From a virus, in the UHGV virus genome UHGV-0104965: a stretch of 16,371 nt of DNA; one strand, 5' to 3'. Of the stretch, positions 808 through 12,640 are shown piece after piece (position 1 is the first letter of the stretch; each line of letters starts with the position of its first letter). Below the pieces are notes generated by a model. That model saw nothing but the letters and a program-made list of their open reading frames with translations. It did not search any database and was not told the origin of the DNA. The translations under genes and the position numbers were made by a program.

Positions 808-1323
808 TCACCGCCGCTCTTGCTCAATCTGCCGTATACCAGCCAGGTTATTGTTGCCCTTCTCAATCACGGCCAGCAGCGGCTTAATCCAGAGCACAGC
901 CTGGCAGTAAGTTATTGAGCCGGCGGCAGCGGTACTATCATCGGCTGCGTCAGGTCCGTCGGTATCGGCGTGCATTGCGCTGGAACGTAAACGGTACGCG
1001 TATTCGAGCAGCCCACCAGCAATGTCAGCAGGAACAGGCAGATCACAGGTTTTTTCACGGCGGAGAATCTCCCGGTATTCGATTACGGTTTCTTCGGTGC
1101 TGGTGTCTATCAGGGCGTTAAGCCTGTTGGCATGTTCGGCTACCTGATTGAACCTATTAAAGTTGAATGCCTGGGTAGCGATCACCTGCCCCTGCAAAGA
1201 GTTGTCACTTCGCAGAACGTCGTTATCGCTCTGTAGGCTACTGGCGTTTGAGCAACTCTTAACGAGAGCGACCGAAAGGCCAGCAATAACGACAACGCCG
1301 ATAAGACCTGCATTAATTTTCAT
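808..1323 (-). CDS. i-spanin (Rz-like inner-membrane spanin subunit)
   Basis: ORF 808..1416 trimmed to internal ATG at 1323, which overlaps the endolysin stop (ATGA). N-terminal TM helix [21 protein letters not shown] followed by charged, probably coiled-coil periplasmic domain; last gene of the lysis cassette; contains the embedded o-spanin ORF. Confidence 0.7.
   Translation of the reverse strand: MKINAGLIGVVVIAGLSVALVKSCSNASSLQSDNDVLRSDNSLQGQVIATQAFNFNRFNQVAEHANRLNALIDTSTEETVIEYREILRREKTCDLPVPADIAGGLLEYAYRLRSSAMHADTDGPDAADDSTAAAGSITYCQAVLWIKPLLAVIEKGNNNLAGIRQIEQERR
912..1058 (-). CDS. o-spanin (Rz1-like outer-membrane lipoprotein), embedded in +1 frame of the i-spanin gene
   Basis: Hand translation from GTG at 1058 to TAA at 912 gives 48 aa: MKKPVICLFLLTLLVGCSNTRTVYVPAQCTPIPTDLTQPMIVPLPPAQ. 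Lipobox LLVGC, proline-rich mature part with a second Cys, as in lambda Rz1. GGGAG SD about 10 nt upstream. Absent from the ORF track (under 60 aa). Confidence 0.7.
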   Translation of the reverse strand: MKKPVICLFLLTLLVGCSNTRTVYVPAQCTPIPTDLTQPMIVPLPPAQ

Positions 1324-1859
1324 TGGTCCAGCCCCCAGCACGCCAGCGCACTTTCTTGATCGCGCCGCTCGACCTGCCCATAGCAGCCATTCTTTTGGCC
1401 TTTGGTTAGTCGGCAATCACGGCCGCCATCTTTAATCCACCAGCGAATAGCTTCACATGCCCCTTTCCGGTCACCAGCATTGATGCGCTTATAGAACGTG
1501 GACGGGAAGCATTTACCCGGCCCGATGTTGTACGGGCAAAAAGATGCGATGCCTACCTTCTGCGGCTCTGTCAGAGGCACTTTGATATTGCGATCAACCC
1601 AGGCTAATGCCTTATCACGTTCAATAGCGTTAACCTTGCGGCATTGTTCCTCTGTGGCTGTCATGCCCTTAACAACACGCCTGCCATCGATAACGGTCAC
1701 GCCGTGACATAAAGACCAGACCCCACCCGGATCAACAACGGCCACCAGCGCATTGCCTTCTTTCTCGCTGATGAATTGGTCGAAAATGAGTGGAGCAGAT
1801 GCCCCTGACGCGATTAGCGCCAGCACTGCTGCGCTGAGCTTTGCTTTGTTCGACATCAT
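1320..1859 (-). CDS. SAR endolysin (phage lysozyme, T4-lysozyme/GH24-like, signal-anchor-release type)
   Basis: N-terminal weakly hydrophobic SAR segment [20 protein letters not shown] followed by lysozyme catalytic region [15 protein letters not shown]...; start overlaps holin stop (ATGA at 1856-1859); resembles phage 21 R21 / P1 Lyz. Confidence 0.9.
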
Positions 1860-2071
1860 TCACCTCGGGCAGCTTTGCGGCGATCCGCTTTGATTTGAAA
1901 ATAAAGGTTGGTTAGGAAGGTTAGTAAGCCAAACAGTAAACTACCGATCACACCTATAGCGGCCCACTGTTCGGGTGAGTAACCGTCAAGAAGTCTTCTG
2001 AACCAGTAAATGGCACTACCTCCCGATGCGCCGTAGGAAATGCCAGTAGTTATTTTGTCCATTCGATACAT
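1856..2071 (-). CDS. Pinholin (phage 21 S21-like class II holin) with dual-start motif
   Basis: 71 aa beginning [10 protein letters not shown]... with two TM segments, closely resembling S21 (MKSMDK...). Met1 and Met4 give the antiholin/holin dual start. GAGGTGA SD upstream of ATG at 2071. Confidence 0.9.
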
Positions 2072-2112: not shown

Positions 2113-2138
2113 AAAAAGGGCCGCGATAGCGACCCAAG
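2113..2138 (-). terminator. Candidate intrinsic terminator between methyltransferase and holin genes
   Basis: On the minus strand GGGUCGC-uauc-GCGGCCC (7-bp stem with one G-U pair) followed by UUUUU. Stem is more stable in the minus-strand RNA, matching the transcription direction. Confidence 0.5.
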
Positions 2139-2141
2139 CTT

Positions 2142-3194
2142 TTATTCCCCTGCCAGCTGCCTTACCTCACTTACCGTCTGGTTGAAACGTTCCTCTTCCA
2201 GTTCTACGCCGATAGCCTGGCGGCCCAGTTCAATGGCTGCTTTAACAGTTGATCCCGAGCCCATAAAGAAATCAGCTACCACATCGCCGGGCCTGCTGCT
2301 GGCGTTGATGATTTGCCGCAACATATCAGCGGGCTTTTCGCACGGGTGTTTGCCTGGATAGAACTGGACTGGTTTATGGGTCCATACGTCCGTATATGGC
2401 ACGGCAGCTGTCACAGAGAAATGCCGCCGAAGTGATTTGTACTCTTCGAGCAGCTCTGAATATTTGCGATTCAACGAATGCCACAGAGCCACCAGCTGGT
2501 GGTGTGGTGTTGCCAGTTCGCCGTTCTGGTGCTTTTCGATGGCTACCTGCGTGAAAAGGGACTGAAGTTTCCGGTAGTCTGATTCATTCGGTAATTGCCA
2601 CTGGCTACCGCTGAACCAGTGAGACACCATGTTCTTCTTTCCAGTCGCATCGGCTATTTGTTTTGAGGATATGCCAAGCGCTTCACGTGCATCCCGGAAA
2701 TAAGATATTAGGGGAGTCATTACATGCTGCTTCAGCTCGCTTCCCTTCTCAGCGTACCCGTCGCTCTTTGGTTTATACGGCCCCTGGTAATGCTCAGCGA
2801 ACAGGATGCGTTCTGTTGCAGGGAAGTAAGAGCGCAGGCTCTCTTTATTACAGCCATTCCAGCGGCCCGACGGTTTAGCCCAGATGATGTGGTTCAGGAT
2901 GTTGAACCGCTCACGCATCATGATCTCAATGTCTGCCGCCAGGCGGTGACCGGAGAAAAGATAAAGACTGCCAGCAGGTTTAAGCACTCGCCAGAATTGT
3001 GCGAGGCACATATCAAGCCAGCGAAGATAATCCTCATCCCCTTTCCATTGATTGTCCCAGCCGTTGGGTTTCACTTTGAAGTACGGCGGATCCGTAACAA
3101 TAAGGTCAATGGTGTTATCTGGGAGGGTTGCGAGGTATAGCAGGCAGTCAGCGTTGACAAGCTCAACACTGTTTATATTTACAGTATTTTTCAT
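2142..3194 (-). CDS. DNA methyltransferase, beta-class (N6-adenine or N4-cytosine), orphan phage enzyme
   Basis: Motif IV TDPPY near the N-terminus and SAM-binding motif I FFMGSGST near the C-terminus (beta-class order: IV then I). 350 aa, no adjacent restriction endonuclease gene. Confidence 0.9.
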   Translation of the reverse strand: MKNTVNINSVELVNADCLLYLATLPDNTIDLIVTDPPYFKVKPNGWDNQWKGDEDYLRWLDMCLAQFWRVLKPAGSLYLFSGHRLAADIEIMMRERFNILNHIIWAKPSGRWNGCNKESLRSYFPATERILFAEHYQGPYKPKSDGYAEKGSELKQHVMTPLISYFRDAREALGISSKQIADATGKKNMVSHWFSGSQWQLPNESDYRKLQSLFTQVAIEKHQNGELATPHHQLVALWHSLNRKYSELLEEYKSLRRHFSVTAAVPYTDVWTHKPVQFYPGKHPCEKPADMLRQIINASSRPGDVVADFFMGSGSTVKAAIELGRQAIGVELEEERFNQTVSEVRQLAGE

Positions 3195-3392
3195 AGATCC
3201 GTAAGCGTAACTCTGATAGGCTCACTATGCTTTTGCGCTAAAGCAGTGGGCCTTGGTTAGCTTGTGACCTGAAAGCATGAGCTGATGGCTGGCCGGGTGC
3301 TACAACACCCTCCAGCCGCCCATTTCTCAAGCGAAAATGCCTCCAGATAGGAGGAGCGTAGATTAGATAACTGGCTTTAATTTTCTGTCGAC

Positions 3393-3425
3393 GAAAAAAA
3401 ACCCGCTATTAAGCGGGTTTTTTCC
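3393..3425. terminator. Strong bidirectional rho-independent terminator ending the AT-rich moron
   Basis: ACCCGCU(3401-3407)-auua-AGCGGGU(3412-3418), 7-bp stem, flanked by an A8 run upstream and T-run downstream; directly follows the stop of the 53-aa CDS on the minus strand. Confidence 0.75.
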
Positions 3426-3445: not shown

Positions 3446-3607
3446 TCATGCGGCTTCTCTAACACGACGGCGACCTTGACGCTCTTGAGAAGGTGCCTGT
3501 GCATTCTCTTCAAGAGCTGGACCAACCTTCATAAGAAAGTCCAGAGCTTCGCCAGCTTTTCTGTAAGTTTGGATAGTATCAAACAAGCGTTCTTTTTTCA
3601 TTTCCAT
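3446..3607 (-). CDS. Small hypothetical protein (53 aa), unlisted in the ORF track
   Basis: Hand translation: MEMKKERLFDTIQTYRKAGEALDFLMKVGPALEENAQAPSQERQGRRRVREAA. ATG at 3607 preceded by GAGGTG SD; stop TGA at 3446-3448 followed by the strong terminator. Basic C-terminal tail. Function unknown. Confidence 0.55.
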   Translation of the reverse strand: MEMKKERLFDTIQTYRKAGEALDFLMKVGPALEENAQAPSQERQGRRRVREAA

Positions 3608-3855: not shown

Positions 3856-4401
3856 TTAAGCATCTCTTTCAGCCATGTATCTCATCAGCCTATCAAGACT
3901 ACAAGTCATAACATAAGAGCAACTATCTGACATTTCAAACCCAAAGGTCCGATAGTAATCAATCTTTTCTTCCACTGGTTCAATGATACGAACCTCAGTA
4001 CCATCAACTTGCTTCATGAAGATAACGGCGGCGTATAATGTATACAAAATCATCTTACGACGCAATGGATGATCTTCACTATCCTTCACGAAGTTCTCAA
4101 CTGCATGTATATCAAACCTACTGCTACCGTGATGGTAGGTGCACAATGCCACACCCGCTGGGTAATCATCAACAAGTTTATGCTCTTTAGAAGTTATTAG
4201 TTTAATACATAAACTGAAACAATCCGGGTCATTACCTACTGAGGTTACATAGTATTCCCAGTTAAGTTCACCATAAGCTCTTATGAGGGAACTAGTATCA
4301 TTAAAAGAAAGCGGACCGACTGCTAGATCTATCTCACGATGATCCATGTATGCCTGGAGGGTGTTATAGGTTTGTTGAGCTACTTCTTCCAGAGAAAGCA
4401 T
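3856..4401 (-). CDS. Hypothetical protein in AT-rich moron (about 181 aa), possible GNAT-like fold
   Basis: ORF 3856..4413 uses a TTG; first ATG is at 4401 (MLSLEEV...). No clear SD. Low GC versus flanks. C-terminal segment ...RRKMILYTLYAAVIFMKQVDGTEVRIIEP...IDYYRTFGFE loosely resembles the acetyltransferase core and Y-x-x-x-G-F motif; weak, eye-only. Confidence 0.7.
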   Translation of the reverse strand: MLSLEEVAQQTYNTLQAYMDHREIDLAVGPLSFNDTSSLIRAYGELNWEYYVTSVGNDPDCFSLCIKLITSKEHKLVDDYPAGVALCTYHHGSSRFDIHAVENFVKDSEDHPLRRKMILYTLYAAVIFMKQVDGTEVRIIEPVEEKIDYYRTFGFEMSDSCSYVMTCSLDRLMRYMAERDA

Positions 4402-4500
4402 AATGTAGGCCAAAACAGGAGTTTAAGGGTTGAAAAAGAATACCATTAACAAATGTTAAAAACACTGAAGGATGGGATGTTTTTTCAGATTACTCCCAAG

Positions 4501-4522
4501 AAAAAACCCGCTCACTGGCGGG
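4501..4522 (-). terminator. Intrinsic terminator immediately downstream of the Q-like gene (tR'-like)
   Basis: On minus strand CCCGC-cagtga-GCGGG followed by UUUUUU (complement of 4501-4506). About 50 nt downstream of the candidate late promoter. Confidence 0.7.
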
Positions 4523-4558
4523 CTGATATACTTTTAGCAACATATCAAATTAGCTTCA

Positions 4559-4587
4559 AATATCGCTTATTTTGTTGCATTTTGCAA
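4559..4587 (-). promoter_or_regulatory. Candidate late promoter pR' (sigma70-like)
   Basis: On minus strand TTGCAA (-35; plus 4582-4587), 17-bp spacer, GATATT (-10; plus 4559-4564), placed between the Q-like gene stop and the tR'-like terminator. Hexamers are imperfect; positional argument is the main support. Confidence 0.3.
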
Positions 4588-4617
4588 GCTTAATTGAGGG
4601 AGTTAGTGAAAGTTACA

Positions 4618-5331
4618 TCACATTTCCGCCACTTTCAGTTCTTGGTACTCTTCGTACCGTGACAAAATTTCGCTTAGTGCCTGGCTGTCCATCTCAGTAA
4701 ACGACGCTTTGAAAGCCGCCCAGTGGCATGAATACACTCTGAGCCAGGTGGAACGCTCAACGCTGACCATGCGCGCCAGCGCTGCACCAGCATACTCCTG
4801 ATAGGTATCGTTATTACGCGAGGCAGCAACTTCTTGCGCCGCCAGCCAGACAAGCCCTATCAGTTTTTTAGTGACACGGTCCTGGATTTTTTTGCCGCTA
4901 TGCTGACGCTGAAACTCTTCCCATACGAACTGGCACATTAACCTCTGGTACCGGAAAGCAAGGTCATGCCCATAGCAGTACCGCACCCATGCCTGCAAAT
5001 GCTCCCCAAGACCATTGACCGAACGACGCCATGCTGAACAAGCGAACTCCGCATCCTTAATAGGCGGTAAAGGTCTGCGACGGCTCCTTGTCTCAAGAAC
5101 ATAAAGTGGAGTGGCCATCGTTTTTACAACCTTGGATCCACAACCTTCCCCACCCTCCATGACGATTTCAGGATGGTGCCGGGGGTATTTGTTCTTATCT
5201 GCTGGTGGATGCTCACTGAACGCCTGCAGCTGTCCTTTTGTCGATCCTGATAAATCCGCCAGCGCGCGGCGCAGTTCAATCCGCGTATATTCCAGTTCTT
5301 GTAAATTCATTATGCTCAGCGCTCCATACAA
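4618..5331 (-). CDS. Putative late-gene antitermination protein Q (QuuQ/YdfT-like)
   Basis: 237-aa ORF directly downstream of the YdfU-like gene and upstream of a promoter-plus-terminator pair and the lysis cassette, the canonical Q position; this gene order and size match my recollection of ydfU-quuQ in E. coli Qin. No Cys4 zinc finger seen, so not lambda-Q type. Start may be the internal ATG at 5310 (MNLQELEY). Confidence 0.6.
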   Translation of the reverse strand: MYGALSIMNLQELEYTRIELRRALADLSGSTKGQLQAFSEHPPADKNKYPRHHPEIVMEGGEGCGSKVVKTMATPLYVLETRSRRRPLPPIKDAEFACSAWRRSVNGLGEHLQAWVRYCYGHDLAFRYQRLMCQFVWEEFQRQHSGKKIQDRVTKKLIGLVWLAAQEVAASRNNDTYQEYAGAALARMVSVERSTWLRVYSCHWAAFKASFTEMDSQALSEILSRYEEYQELKVAEM

Positions 5332-11127: not shown

Positions 11128-11733
11128 TTACTTCTCCATACAAGATTTGTCTGCCACGACGCCCGGAGCTGCACACTCGCGGGCGTCACTCTTTTCCGGC
11201 GCACAAAACACACGGAAAAGCAGCGTCAAATGTTCCTGCCACTTAGCCATCACCTGATAGCTGTTCTCTTCGATCTGGGTGCGTTCCTGAGCATCAATAA
11301 CGCCGTCAGCGGTAGCTTTACGAACGTATTGTGAATGCCTGCCGATCCACTCAACTGACTCCATGAGACGCTGGTTGATATCGCCGTTCTCAATCTCTTC
11401 AACATCAGCCAATGGCACAAAAACACCGTTCGAGTGACGTGCAATAGCGTTCGCTATGTGGTTTGAACCACCAGCACGTTGAAGCACCATCGCCCAACCG
11501 AGCGGGAAGATCTGATCGCCATCGGTACGCAGCCGGTTAAACAGCGCGTTCTCGGTCACACCCAACCACTCAGCAGCTTCTGAATATCCGCCAGGCAGCT
11601 CGGTGATCGTTTTTTTGATTGCGGCCACCAGCCAGGCTGGCTGCTTATCTACTTTCCATTCAGGTTCTATACCCACGGCTAGGTCCTCCCTTCTGTGGTT
11701 ATTTCTGATCGTTAGGCGATGTATTCTTGCCAT
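11128..11733 (-). CDS. CII-like lysogeny-establishment regulator (phage 186 CII / YdaT-like family)
   Basis: Position immediately downstream of cro-like gene; HTH-like segment YSEAAEWLGVTENALFNRLRTDGDQIFPLGWAMVL resembles the phage 186 CII pattern. ORF 11128..11760 begins with GTG; first ATG at 11733. Start uncertain (no clear SD); overlaps cro-like gene end. Confidence 0.6.
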   Translation of the reverse strand: MARIHRLTIRNNHRREDLAVGIEPEWKVDKQPAWLVAAIKKTITELPGGYSEAAEWLGVTENALFNRLRTDGDQIFPLGWAMVLQRAGGSNHIANAIARHSNGVFVPLADVEEIENGDINQRLMESVEWIGRHSQYVRKATADGVIDAQERTQIEENSYQVMAKWQEHLTLLFRVFCAPEKSDARECAAPGVVADKSCMEK

Positions 11734-11914
11734 AACGTTCTGGGTTGAATTCCAGTTCACCAGCAGTTCGATACGCAGCTTCAGCAGCTCGTCCTTTAGG
11801 GATTAAGCGTCCGGGGCGATTACGCCACTGGTAAACGGCCTCACTGGTGATGCCAAAAAATTCGGCAACTTTCTCAGTGCTGCCGAAATGTTGTTCAATC
11901 TCGTCGGTTGTCAT
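11699..11914 (-). CDS. Cro-like repressor (YdaS/Cro-type HTH)
   Basis: 71 aa with HTH STEKVAEFFGITSEAVYQWRNRPGRLIP; strong AGGAGG SD (11919-11924) before ATG at 11914; divergent from the CI-type repressor across an operator-rich region. Confidence 0.8.
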   Translation of the reverse strand: MTTDEIEQHFGSTEKVAEFFGITSEAVYQWRNRPGRLIPKGRAAEAAYRTAGELEFNPERYGKNTSPNDQK

Positions 11915-11927
11915 GAAGCCTCCTTAG

Positions 11928-11991
11928 CTAAGTTTGGTTAGATATTAATAACCAATCTAACTTTGGTCAATAAAAACTAAGATTACTTAGT
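11928..11991. promoter_or_regulatory. Right operator region with PR and three CTAAG-type repressor binding sites
   Basis: Sites CTAAGTTTGGTTAG (11928-11941), CTAACTTTGGTCA (11957-11969), ACTAAGATTACTTAGT (11976-11991). On the minus strand TTGACC (-35; plus 11965-11970), 17 bp, TAATAT (-10; plus 11942-11947) forms PR for cro; the CI-type repressor gene starts at 12014. Confidence 0.6.
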
Positions 11992-12013: not shown

Positions 12014-12640
12014 ATGGAAACGGTTGGTCAGCGCATTAAAGCCCTACGCAGGGTTACAAAAACCTCTCAAAAAGAACTGGGTAAGTTCTGCGGGGTTAGT
12101 GACGTAGCGGTGGGTTATTGGGAAAAGGATGTGAATATCCCTAACGGAGAATCGCTGGTTAAGCTGGCTAAATTCTTCAATACATCAATAAATTACATTC
12201 TTTACGGCACTGAATTTGAAGGTACCCTCATAACTAAAATGAGGCGTGTGCCCGTGATTTCCTGGGTTCAAGCTGGGCAGTTTACGGAATGTAAGGCCGC
12301 TGATTTATTCAGTGATGTTGATAAATGGGTTGAAACATCACTACGCATTGGGGATAGCTCGTTCGCTTTAGAGGTCAAAGGGGATTCAATGACCAATCCA
12401 AATGGCCTCCCAACAATCCCTGAAGGGGCAACCGTTATTGTTGATCCAGATGCCGAACCCCTTCATGGCAAGATTGTTGTTGCGCGTATTGATGGCACTA
12501 ACGAAGCGACTGTTAAAAAACTGGTCATTGATGGCCCACAAAAATTTTTAGTCCCACTAAATCCTCGCTACCCCAACCTCCCGATCAATGGTAACTGCCT
12601 CATTATTGGCGTAGTTAAAGGCGTTCAGTACGAACTCTAA
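12014..12640 (+). CDS. CI-type prophage repressor (N-terminal XRE HTH, C-terminal S24 LexA-like peptidase)
   Basis: HTH QKELGKFCGVSDVAVGYWEKDVNIPNGESLVKLAKFF; C-terminal autocleavage domain with Ser in GDSM and Lys in VKKLV; divergent from cro-like gene. Confidence 0.95.
   Translation: METVGQRIKALRRVTKTSQKELGKFCGVSDVAVGYWEKDVNIPNGESLVKLAKFFNTSINYILYGTEFEGTLITKMRRVPVISWVQAGQFTECKAADLFSDVDKWVETSLRIGDSSFALEVKGDSMTNPNGLPTIPEGATVIVDPDAEPLHGKIVVARIDGTNEATVKKLVIDGPQKFLVPLNPRYPNLPINGNCLIIGVVKGVQYEL

Follow-up and report, generated by a model that had tools for sequence, protein, structure and literature searches.

A predicted late control module of the phage 82 type next to a Q82-family antiterminator gene in a lambdoid phage genome

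Q antiterminators fall into three unrelated families, one of which, the Q82 family, corresponds to Pfam PF06323 (PMC9388147). Structures have been reported for Q21 and Q-lambda (PMC6606751, PMC9388147), and the structure of Q82 is given as an open question (PMC9388147). At the late promoter pR' of phage 82, the Q-binding element (QBE) lies between the -35 and -10 elements and is required for 82 Q activity (PMC4914094). The 82 transcript has an AAA start, and the early transcribed region has a pause element at +6..+14 that resembles an extended -10, followed by a G/C-rich triplet at +15..+17 and by an AT-rich stretch; pausing occurs at +25/+26 with the natural U, and a C-to-A change at +17 approximately halves the pause half-life (PMC5001585). 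Antiterminated phage promoters have also been proposed as a source of small RNAs (sRNAs; PMC7547250).

We analyzed a 16,371-nucleotide stretch of viral DNA (UHGV virus genome UHGV-0104965; hereafter the window), in which positions 4501-4587, judging from sequence comparison, very probably constitute the late control module (pR', Q-utilisation site and tR') of a lambdoid phage with a Q82-family Q. They are bounded exactly by the initial -35 base (4587) and the final T-tract base (4501), and all features lie on the minus strand; in the window, a 30-nt linker separates the Q stop codon from the -35 hexamer. The Q gene and the elements of the module, in the order of transcription, are as follows.

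4618..5310, minus strand: Q antiterminator gene, Q82 family (PF06323), 230 aa from the ATG at 5310
4582..4587, minus strand: -35 hexamer TTGCAA, invariant in 49 unique module variants, in a register common to phages 434 and PhiR47_2
4565..4581, minus strand: 17-nt promoter spacer, AATGCAACAAAATAAGC, the putative Q-binding element
4559..4564, minus strand: -10 hexamer GATATT, in the register of TATACT (434) and TATATT (82-like locus)
4551..4552, minus strand: predicted transcription start, 7 nt 3' of the -10 hexamer
4536..4547, minus strand: predicted sigma70-dependent pause element, with TG at +6/+7, the -10-like hexamer TATGTT at +9..+14 and GCT at +15..+17
4527..4528, minus strand: promoter-proximal pause site at +25/+26 predicted by homology, with U at +25
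4498..4524, minus strand: intrinsic terminator tR' from the terminator scan, with a hairpin at 4524..4505 and a T-tract at 4506..4501, then CTT

The Q protein has PF06323 as its sole Pfam match (E 2.5e-40; 139 bits, cutoff 25), so that neither the lambda type (PF03589) nor the 21 type (PF06530) was matched, and it also matches PHROG 304, 'anti-termination protein Q-like' (E 1e-71). Phage 82 Q, whose biochemistry has been characterized, aligns with it over 215 aa at 34% identity (E 2e-41). Because this alignment begins at the ATG at 5310, and because the annotation of Eeyore, a 98.5%-identical phage, likewise gives a Q of 230 aa, that ATG is more likely the start codon than the TTG at 5331, which opens the mechanical 237-aa open reading frame (ORF). 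The initial annotation had described a 237-aa Q-like protein; the Q-like assignment holds and is narrowed to the Q82 family, whereas the length is more likely 230 aa. Among the PDB chains in the copy we searched, none matched the Q protein with a significant E-value.

Since the GenBank record of phage 82 (X92588) ends at the Q stop codon and thus lacks pR', we used two substitutes with closely related Q proteins, phage 434 (89% identity to 82 Q) and PhiR47_2 (locus L194; 222 of 229 residues, 97%). The L194 promoter region reads TTGCAA-17-TATATT-6-AAATCTGATATTTTGCCAATGTTGTA, or, with the predicted start marked, TTGCAA-17-TATATT-TTATGT-A(+1)AATCTGATATTTTGCCAATGTTGTA, and it agrees with every published feature of 82 pR': the AAA start, the +6..+14 element, GCC at +15..+17, the AT-rich stretch and the U at +25 (PMC5001585). 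The corresponding sequence in the window, TTGCAA-17-GATATT-TGAAGC-T(+1)AATTTGATATGTTGCTAAAAGTATA, aligns with that of L194 in register and with identical spacings, and 18 of the first 26 transcribed positions are equal. The extended -10-like element at +6..+14, the G/C-rich triplet and the U at the pause end are all present; this pause element had gone unmentioned in the initial annotation and was identified in our follow-up analysis. By alignment with the first A of the 82 AAA start (PMC5001585), +1 falls at 4552, and the A at 4551 is the likelier initiating base. The T at +25 occurs in 46 of the 49 unique variants, the other three having C. The strength of the pause in the window is uncertain because the triplet at +15..+17 is GCT and not GCC.

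Measured only against the consensus, the promoter is weak and does not exceed chance. It scores 8/12, with no T at -12 and no extended -10, and the promoter scan, run with a threshold of 9/12, did not list it. Matches of 8/12 are not enriched in the window (43 seen versus approximately 55 expected), and although a promoter match followed 20-70 nt on by a terminator occurs there just once, at 4501-4587, such a pair also arose in 4 of 40 simulated sequences. These chance-level figures, together with the absence of the promoter from the scan, are what favors a simpler reading, in which the hairpin is the end of the early rightward (nin-Q) operon, the promoter-like hexamers have arisen by chance and the late genes are driven from elsewhere. 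Given the weakness of these within-window statistics, the case for pR' rests on comparative evidence.

For this comparison we gathered 60 loci via the Q protein, plus a dozen annotated phages; the related loci number about 150 overall, with spacing counts taken from 64 loci and per-position counts from 49 unique variants. All 64 loci, phage 434 among them, have the -35 hexamer and the pause element at a distance of 35 nt. Across the 49 variants, the -35 hexamer, A-11, T-10, A-9 and T-7 are invariant and position -12 is variable (G in 23, C in 23 and T in 3); within the transcribed region T6, T9, A10, T14 and G15 are invariant, G7 is kept in 48 and T13 in 47, and +11 and +12 are free to vary. 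The resulting pattern is TG-n-TA-n-n-TT-G, that is, the TAnnnT read by sigma70 region 2. In the approximately 150 related loci, the invariant positions are those that sigma70 reads. Nucleotide diversity is 0.073 over -35..+17, compared with 0.19 at the third-codon positions of Q and 0.29 at +18..+28.

The edges of the module are marked by two further comparisons. Similarity to the window stops at 4498-4503, in the T-tract, in 54 of the 64 loci, and only Eeyore carries on; Q, pR' and tR' therefore travel as one recombination module, with mosaic sequence beyond it. On the other side, one locus (L048, IMGVR_UViG_3300045115_000039, 2190..3315) has an insert of approximately 1.1 kb between Q and the promoter module. 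Its Q has a different C-terminus, and the insert carries a 225-aa ORF that matches PHROG 2284. The module itself is intact, and similarity resumes at about -37, so that this insertion serves as a natural experiment that places the left edge of the module at about -37. Upstream of that edge, an inverted repeat GTGA-n8-TCAC (GAAATGTGATGTAACTTTCAC; 4588..4625, minus strand) spans the Q stop codon in the window. It is followed by GTAACTTTCACTAAC, which is kept fairly well within the close clade (linker diversity 0.12) and is absent from L048 and from more distant relatives.

A terminator of the early operon with fortuitous hexamers upstream would not be expected to show this picture: diversity over -35..+17 is well below that of the neighboring synonymous sites, the positions read by sigma70 are invariant, the register equals that of 82-type pR', and the module stays intact from about -37 despite an insertion that separates it from Q. 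We therefore regard the early-operon reading as highly improbable. The tR' hairpin can also stop unmodified early transcripts, and the two roles are compatible. With respect to the sigma70-like promoter TTGCAA-17-GATATT that had been proposed at first, both hexamers are present and in the register of an 82-type pR', whereas the match to consensus is moderate.

We also ran the comparison in reverse, scanning viral contigs with the DNA pattern alone (TTGCAAAA-N5-CAAAAT-N5-ATATT-N6-TAATTTGRTA). The scan returned more than 120 matches, and 80 loci were fetched. A Q82-family ORF ends directly upstream on the same strand in 76 of the 80, and each of the remaining four is accounted for by truncation at the contig end, by an incomplete Q match or by the insertion in L048. 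The Q proteins at the pattern-selected loci are 30-100% identical to the reference Qs. A downstream hairpin is found in all 80; the terminator lies by +58 in 75 of them, and in the other five it is slightly further downstream or its T-run is interrupted. The initial annotation had seen in this region a pR'/tR' pair at which Q loads on a paused polymerase, and the Q82 family of the adjacent gene, the 82 register, the conservation of the module and its linkage to Q all argue for that assignment.

Within the promoter, the spacer is near-invariant from -29 to -17 (diversity 0.043). Its positions -27..-24 read TGCA, CCGA, GTCA, ATGA or GTGA depending on the Q cluster, and CTGG in 82/434; such tracking of the Q cluster is also expected from co-inheritance of adjacent DNA. 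Since the -27..-24 pattern fits the location of the 82 QBE between -35 and -10 (PMC4914094), we infer that the spacer may serve as the QBE. Conservation of the spacer does not by itself name the protein that binds it, and the spacer and early transcribed region could in principle be an operator for some other regulator, for instance a late-gene repressor or activator. Such a regulator would have to be reconciled with the linkage of 76 of the 80 pattern-selected loci to Q82-family genes, with a variable tetranucleotide that follows the Q cluster, and with a layout equal to that of 82 pR', where a QBE in the spacer is required for 82 Q (PMC4914094); we consider this explanation extremely improbable and retain the spacer as the candidate QBE.

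The tR' hairpin, AGCCCGCCAGTGAGCGGGTT, has the core stem CCCGC/GCGGG and a dG of -11.2 kcal/mol. Its stem starts at +29, and the RNA released there is predicted to be approximately 52-55 nt long. A terminator shortly after the promoter had been part of the initial annotation, and the hairpin at 4524..4505 with its T-tract, about 35-40 nt from the -10 hexamer, bears this out. All 30 unique terminator variants, folded one sequence at a time, have a GC hairpin from +28..+31 and a T-run ending at +50..+55, with differing stems and loops. RNAalifold on a MAFFT alignment of these variants gave three pairs and no covariation, the two hairpin size classes being out of register; per-sequence folds were used for the terminator in place of column-based covariation. 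In the clade of the window the module takes a compact form, with the hairpin 4-5 nt past the predicted pause site. At the 82-like loci L192, L193 and L194, the terminator lies further downstream, at about +46 to +85, and in L192 and L193 tRNA genes follow it. An AU-rich hairpin further upstream in the pR' leader was rejected as a feature, as it is not kept in relatives, and the fold of the leader showed no unusual stability against shuffles (z -1.4). Searches of Rfam, over the window with the gathering threshold and over 4400-4700 with permissive E-values, returned nothing beyond sub-threshold terminator-like matches.

A 3' end formed by a hairpin and a U-tail is typical of Hfq-binding sRNAs, and the predicted window RNA ends in a standard hairpin and U-tail. 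The pR'-tR' RNA of approximately 52-55 nt, if constitutive in lysogens, might also act in trans as an sRNA like StxS of the Stx phages, in which premature termination of a pR' transcript can yield an sRNA that binds Hfq (PMC7547250). The pR' of the phage 21/933W type (Q21 family, PF06530) does share with the window immediate termination in lysogeny and a short RNA, but it belongs to a 144-aa Q type, not the Q82 type, and StxS is a 74-nt Hfq-binding sRNA processed from a 258-nt leader (PMC7547250). StxS and the window have no sequence or Rfam similarity, and no Rfam family was matched above threshold. Moreover, the sole conserved segment of the RNA, +1..+17, is accounted for by signals at the DNA level, whereas +18..+28 (diversity 0.29) and the hairpin loop are the most variable parts, leaving no conserved seed. 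We thus find a trans-acting role quite unlikely and favor the late control module, with tR' as its terminator.

Downstream of tR', the window contains two more terminators and the lysis genes.

3394..3423, minus strand: second intrinsic terminator, bidirectional, A6-CCCGC-TTAATA-GCGGG-T8, dG -17.4, after the 181-aa and 53-aa genes
2113..2135, minus strand: third intrinsic terminator, GGGTCGC-TATC-GCGGCCC-T5, dG -13.4, between the methylase stop and the holin start
808..2071, minus strand: lysis cassette, with a P21-type holin at 1856..2071 (PF04971), a lysozyme at 1320..1859 (PF00959) and an Rz-like ORF at 808..1416

The two additional downstream terminators announced in the initial annotation were both recovered on the minus strand (3423..3394 and 2135..2113), and its expectation that at least three terminators lie ahead of the lysis genes agrees with our map, in which three separate the promoter from those genes. 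The late genes, all on the minus strand, follow in the order of two genes of unknown function, a DNA methylase, holin, lysozyme and Rz-like ORF; Eeyore has the same lysis order, and then the small terminase subunit. The genes downstream of tR' are a lambdoid late operon. The first two encode proteins of 181 aa (3856..4401, minus strand; PHROG 4350), for which we found no Pfam or NCBIfam match, and 53 aa (3446..3607, minus strand; PHROG 2741). They form a moron-like cassette closed by the strong bidirectional terminator, which among the annotated phages occurs only in Eeyore; in other relatives the inserts found here differ.

By homology with phage 82, the module would operate as follows. Host sigma70 RNA polymerase would initiate at about 4552/4551 from TTGCAA-17-GATATT, and sigma70 retained on the early elongation complex would rebind the extended -10-like element (TG at +6/+7 and TATGTT at +9..+14). 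The complex would then scrunch and pause near +25 (4528), with assistance from the G/C triplet at +15..+17 and from the U at the RNA end. In the absence of Q, the polymerase would escape the pause and terminate approximately 25 nt further on at tR', releasing the RNA of about 52-55 nt. Once accumulated, Q would bind its element in the promoter spacer, engage the paused complex, presumably by the phage 82 route via the beta-flap with the help of NusA, and travel with the polymerase. The Q-modified polymerase should resist tR' as well as the terminators at 3423-3394 and 2135-2113, and read-through would allow expression of the genes of unknown function, the methylase, the lysis genes and the downstream morphogenesis genes.

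Several other features of the window were observed in the course of this analysis. Upstream of the methylase gene (2142..3194) lies a conserved leader of approximately 140 nt (3192..3332, minus strand) that begins with AATGGGCGGCTGG. It is found 80-99 nt upstream of the methylase ATG in 100 of 100 loci that have both features. Its first hairpin, at 3317..3287, has the form GGCTGG-nGGGTG-TTGnAG-CACCCn-CCAGCC, and RNAalifold predicts a conserved fold of 40 pairs in five helices, including a pairing of AGGTC with GATCT just before the ATG that might sequester the region of ribosome binding. Double compensatory changes occur at seven pairs, compared with 2.0 ± 1.0 in shuffles (0 of 500 reach the observed value), which amounts to modest covariation support. 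The leader is probably non-coding because in the window a TAG interrupts the 21-codon ORF that runs through it. It gave no Rfam match and may represent a cis-regulatory leader, so far undescribed, of Dam-like phage methylases. Just upstream of it, at 3340..3354 on the minus strand, there is a hairpin CCTCC-n5-GGAGG and then a short T-rich run. In relatives its sequence varies and the pairing is kept (GCCTCCAGATCCGGAGGC, GCTCCTATAATGGAGT and others). The scan listed it as a weak terminator, and it could represent a fourth, weak one within the late leader.

Further upstream in the genome, a promoter-like TTGACC-17-TAATAT occurs at 11942..11970 (minus strand) between the divergent ORFs 11699..11914 (minus strand) and 12014..12640 (plus strand). 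In the immunity region, the early rightward promoter pR would be expected here, which fits a lambdoid early-to-late operon series for the entire minus-strand layout. In the deposited Eeyore genome (PP925821.1), two small antisense coding sequences annotated as 'hypothetical protein' cover the Q 3' end, the promoter and the terminator (L001, 3739..4062). They are probably spurious because the conservation pattern of the region is non-coding.

For annotation, these results fix the start of the late operon, the likely start codon of Q and the three terminators that Q would have to override, both for this phage and for some 150 relatives. Among the Q families, only Q82 lacks a structure: the PDB copy searched contained none, and PMC9388147 lists it as an open question. 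A natural-variation map of its predicted loading site, although modest, is usable for the design of binding and cryo-EM templates. The map separates the bases that never change, those that follow the sigma70 rules and those that vary with the Q lineage. Two bolder proposals, that the presumably constitutive RNA of approximately 52-55 nt has gained a host-directed sRNA function and, separately, that the approximately 150 spacer variants define a DNA-recognition code of Q82, strike us as unlikely.

Compared with described systems, the window shares with the lambda pR'-qut-tR' region its logic and genome position. The lambda promoter is thought to be constitutive and has its QBE in the spacer, and it combines a sigma70-dependent promoter-proximal pause with a terminator that follows immediately and with processive antitermination that extends into the lysis genes (PMC4914094, PMC9388147). 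Lambda differs from the window in its unrelated Q family (PF03589) and in its pause, at +16/+17 with the element at +1..+6, and in the construct of PMC4914094 it terminates at +193, which gives a far longer short transcript than the approximately 52-55 nt predicted here. Gifsy-1, with a Q that is 33% identical, has TTGACA-17-TATATT and a different leader (L011, 2178..2450); the module is thus not universal to PF06323, because this phage has another downstream design. Phage 82 is the closest counterpart. Window and phage 82 have in common the PF06323 Q, the -35 hexamer TTGCAA, the 17-nt spacer and the distance from -10 to the pause element; within the pause region they share TG at +6/+7, the -10-like hexamer at +9..+14, a G/C triplet at +15..+17 and the U at +25, and in both an intrinsic terminator comes next, then the late genes. 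They differ in the candidate QBE spacer (AATGCAACAAAATAAGC in the window versus AACTGGATTAAAAATCA in the 82 type), the -10 hexamer (GATATT versus TATATT), the +15..+17 triplet (GCT versus GCC) and the likely start (TAA versus AAA). In the window, the Q gene ends 30 nt before the -35 hexamer, whereas the Q stop codon of 82/434 falls within the spacer; the terminator hairpin begins at about +29 in the window, as in phage 434, and at about +58 in the 82-like L194; and the Q proteins of phage 82 and the window are only 34% identical. In summary, the switch at 4501-4587 closely matches the well-studied switch of phage 82, is ordinary in that respect and poses no challenge to the current understanding of such systems.
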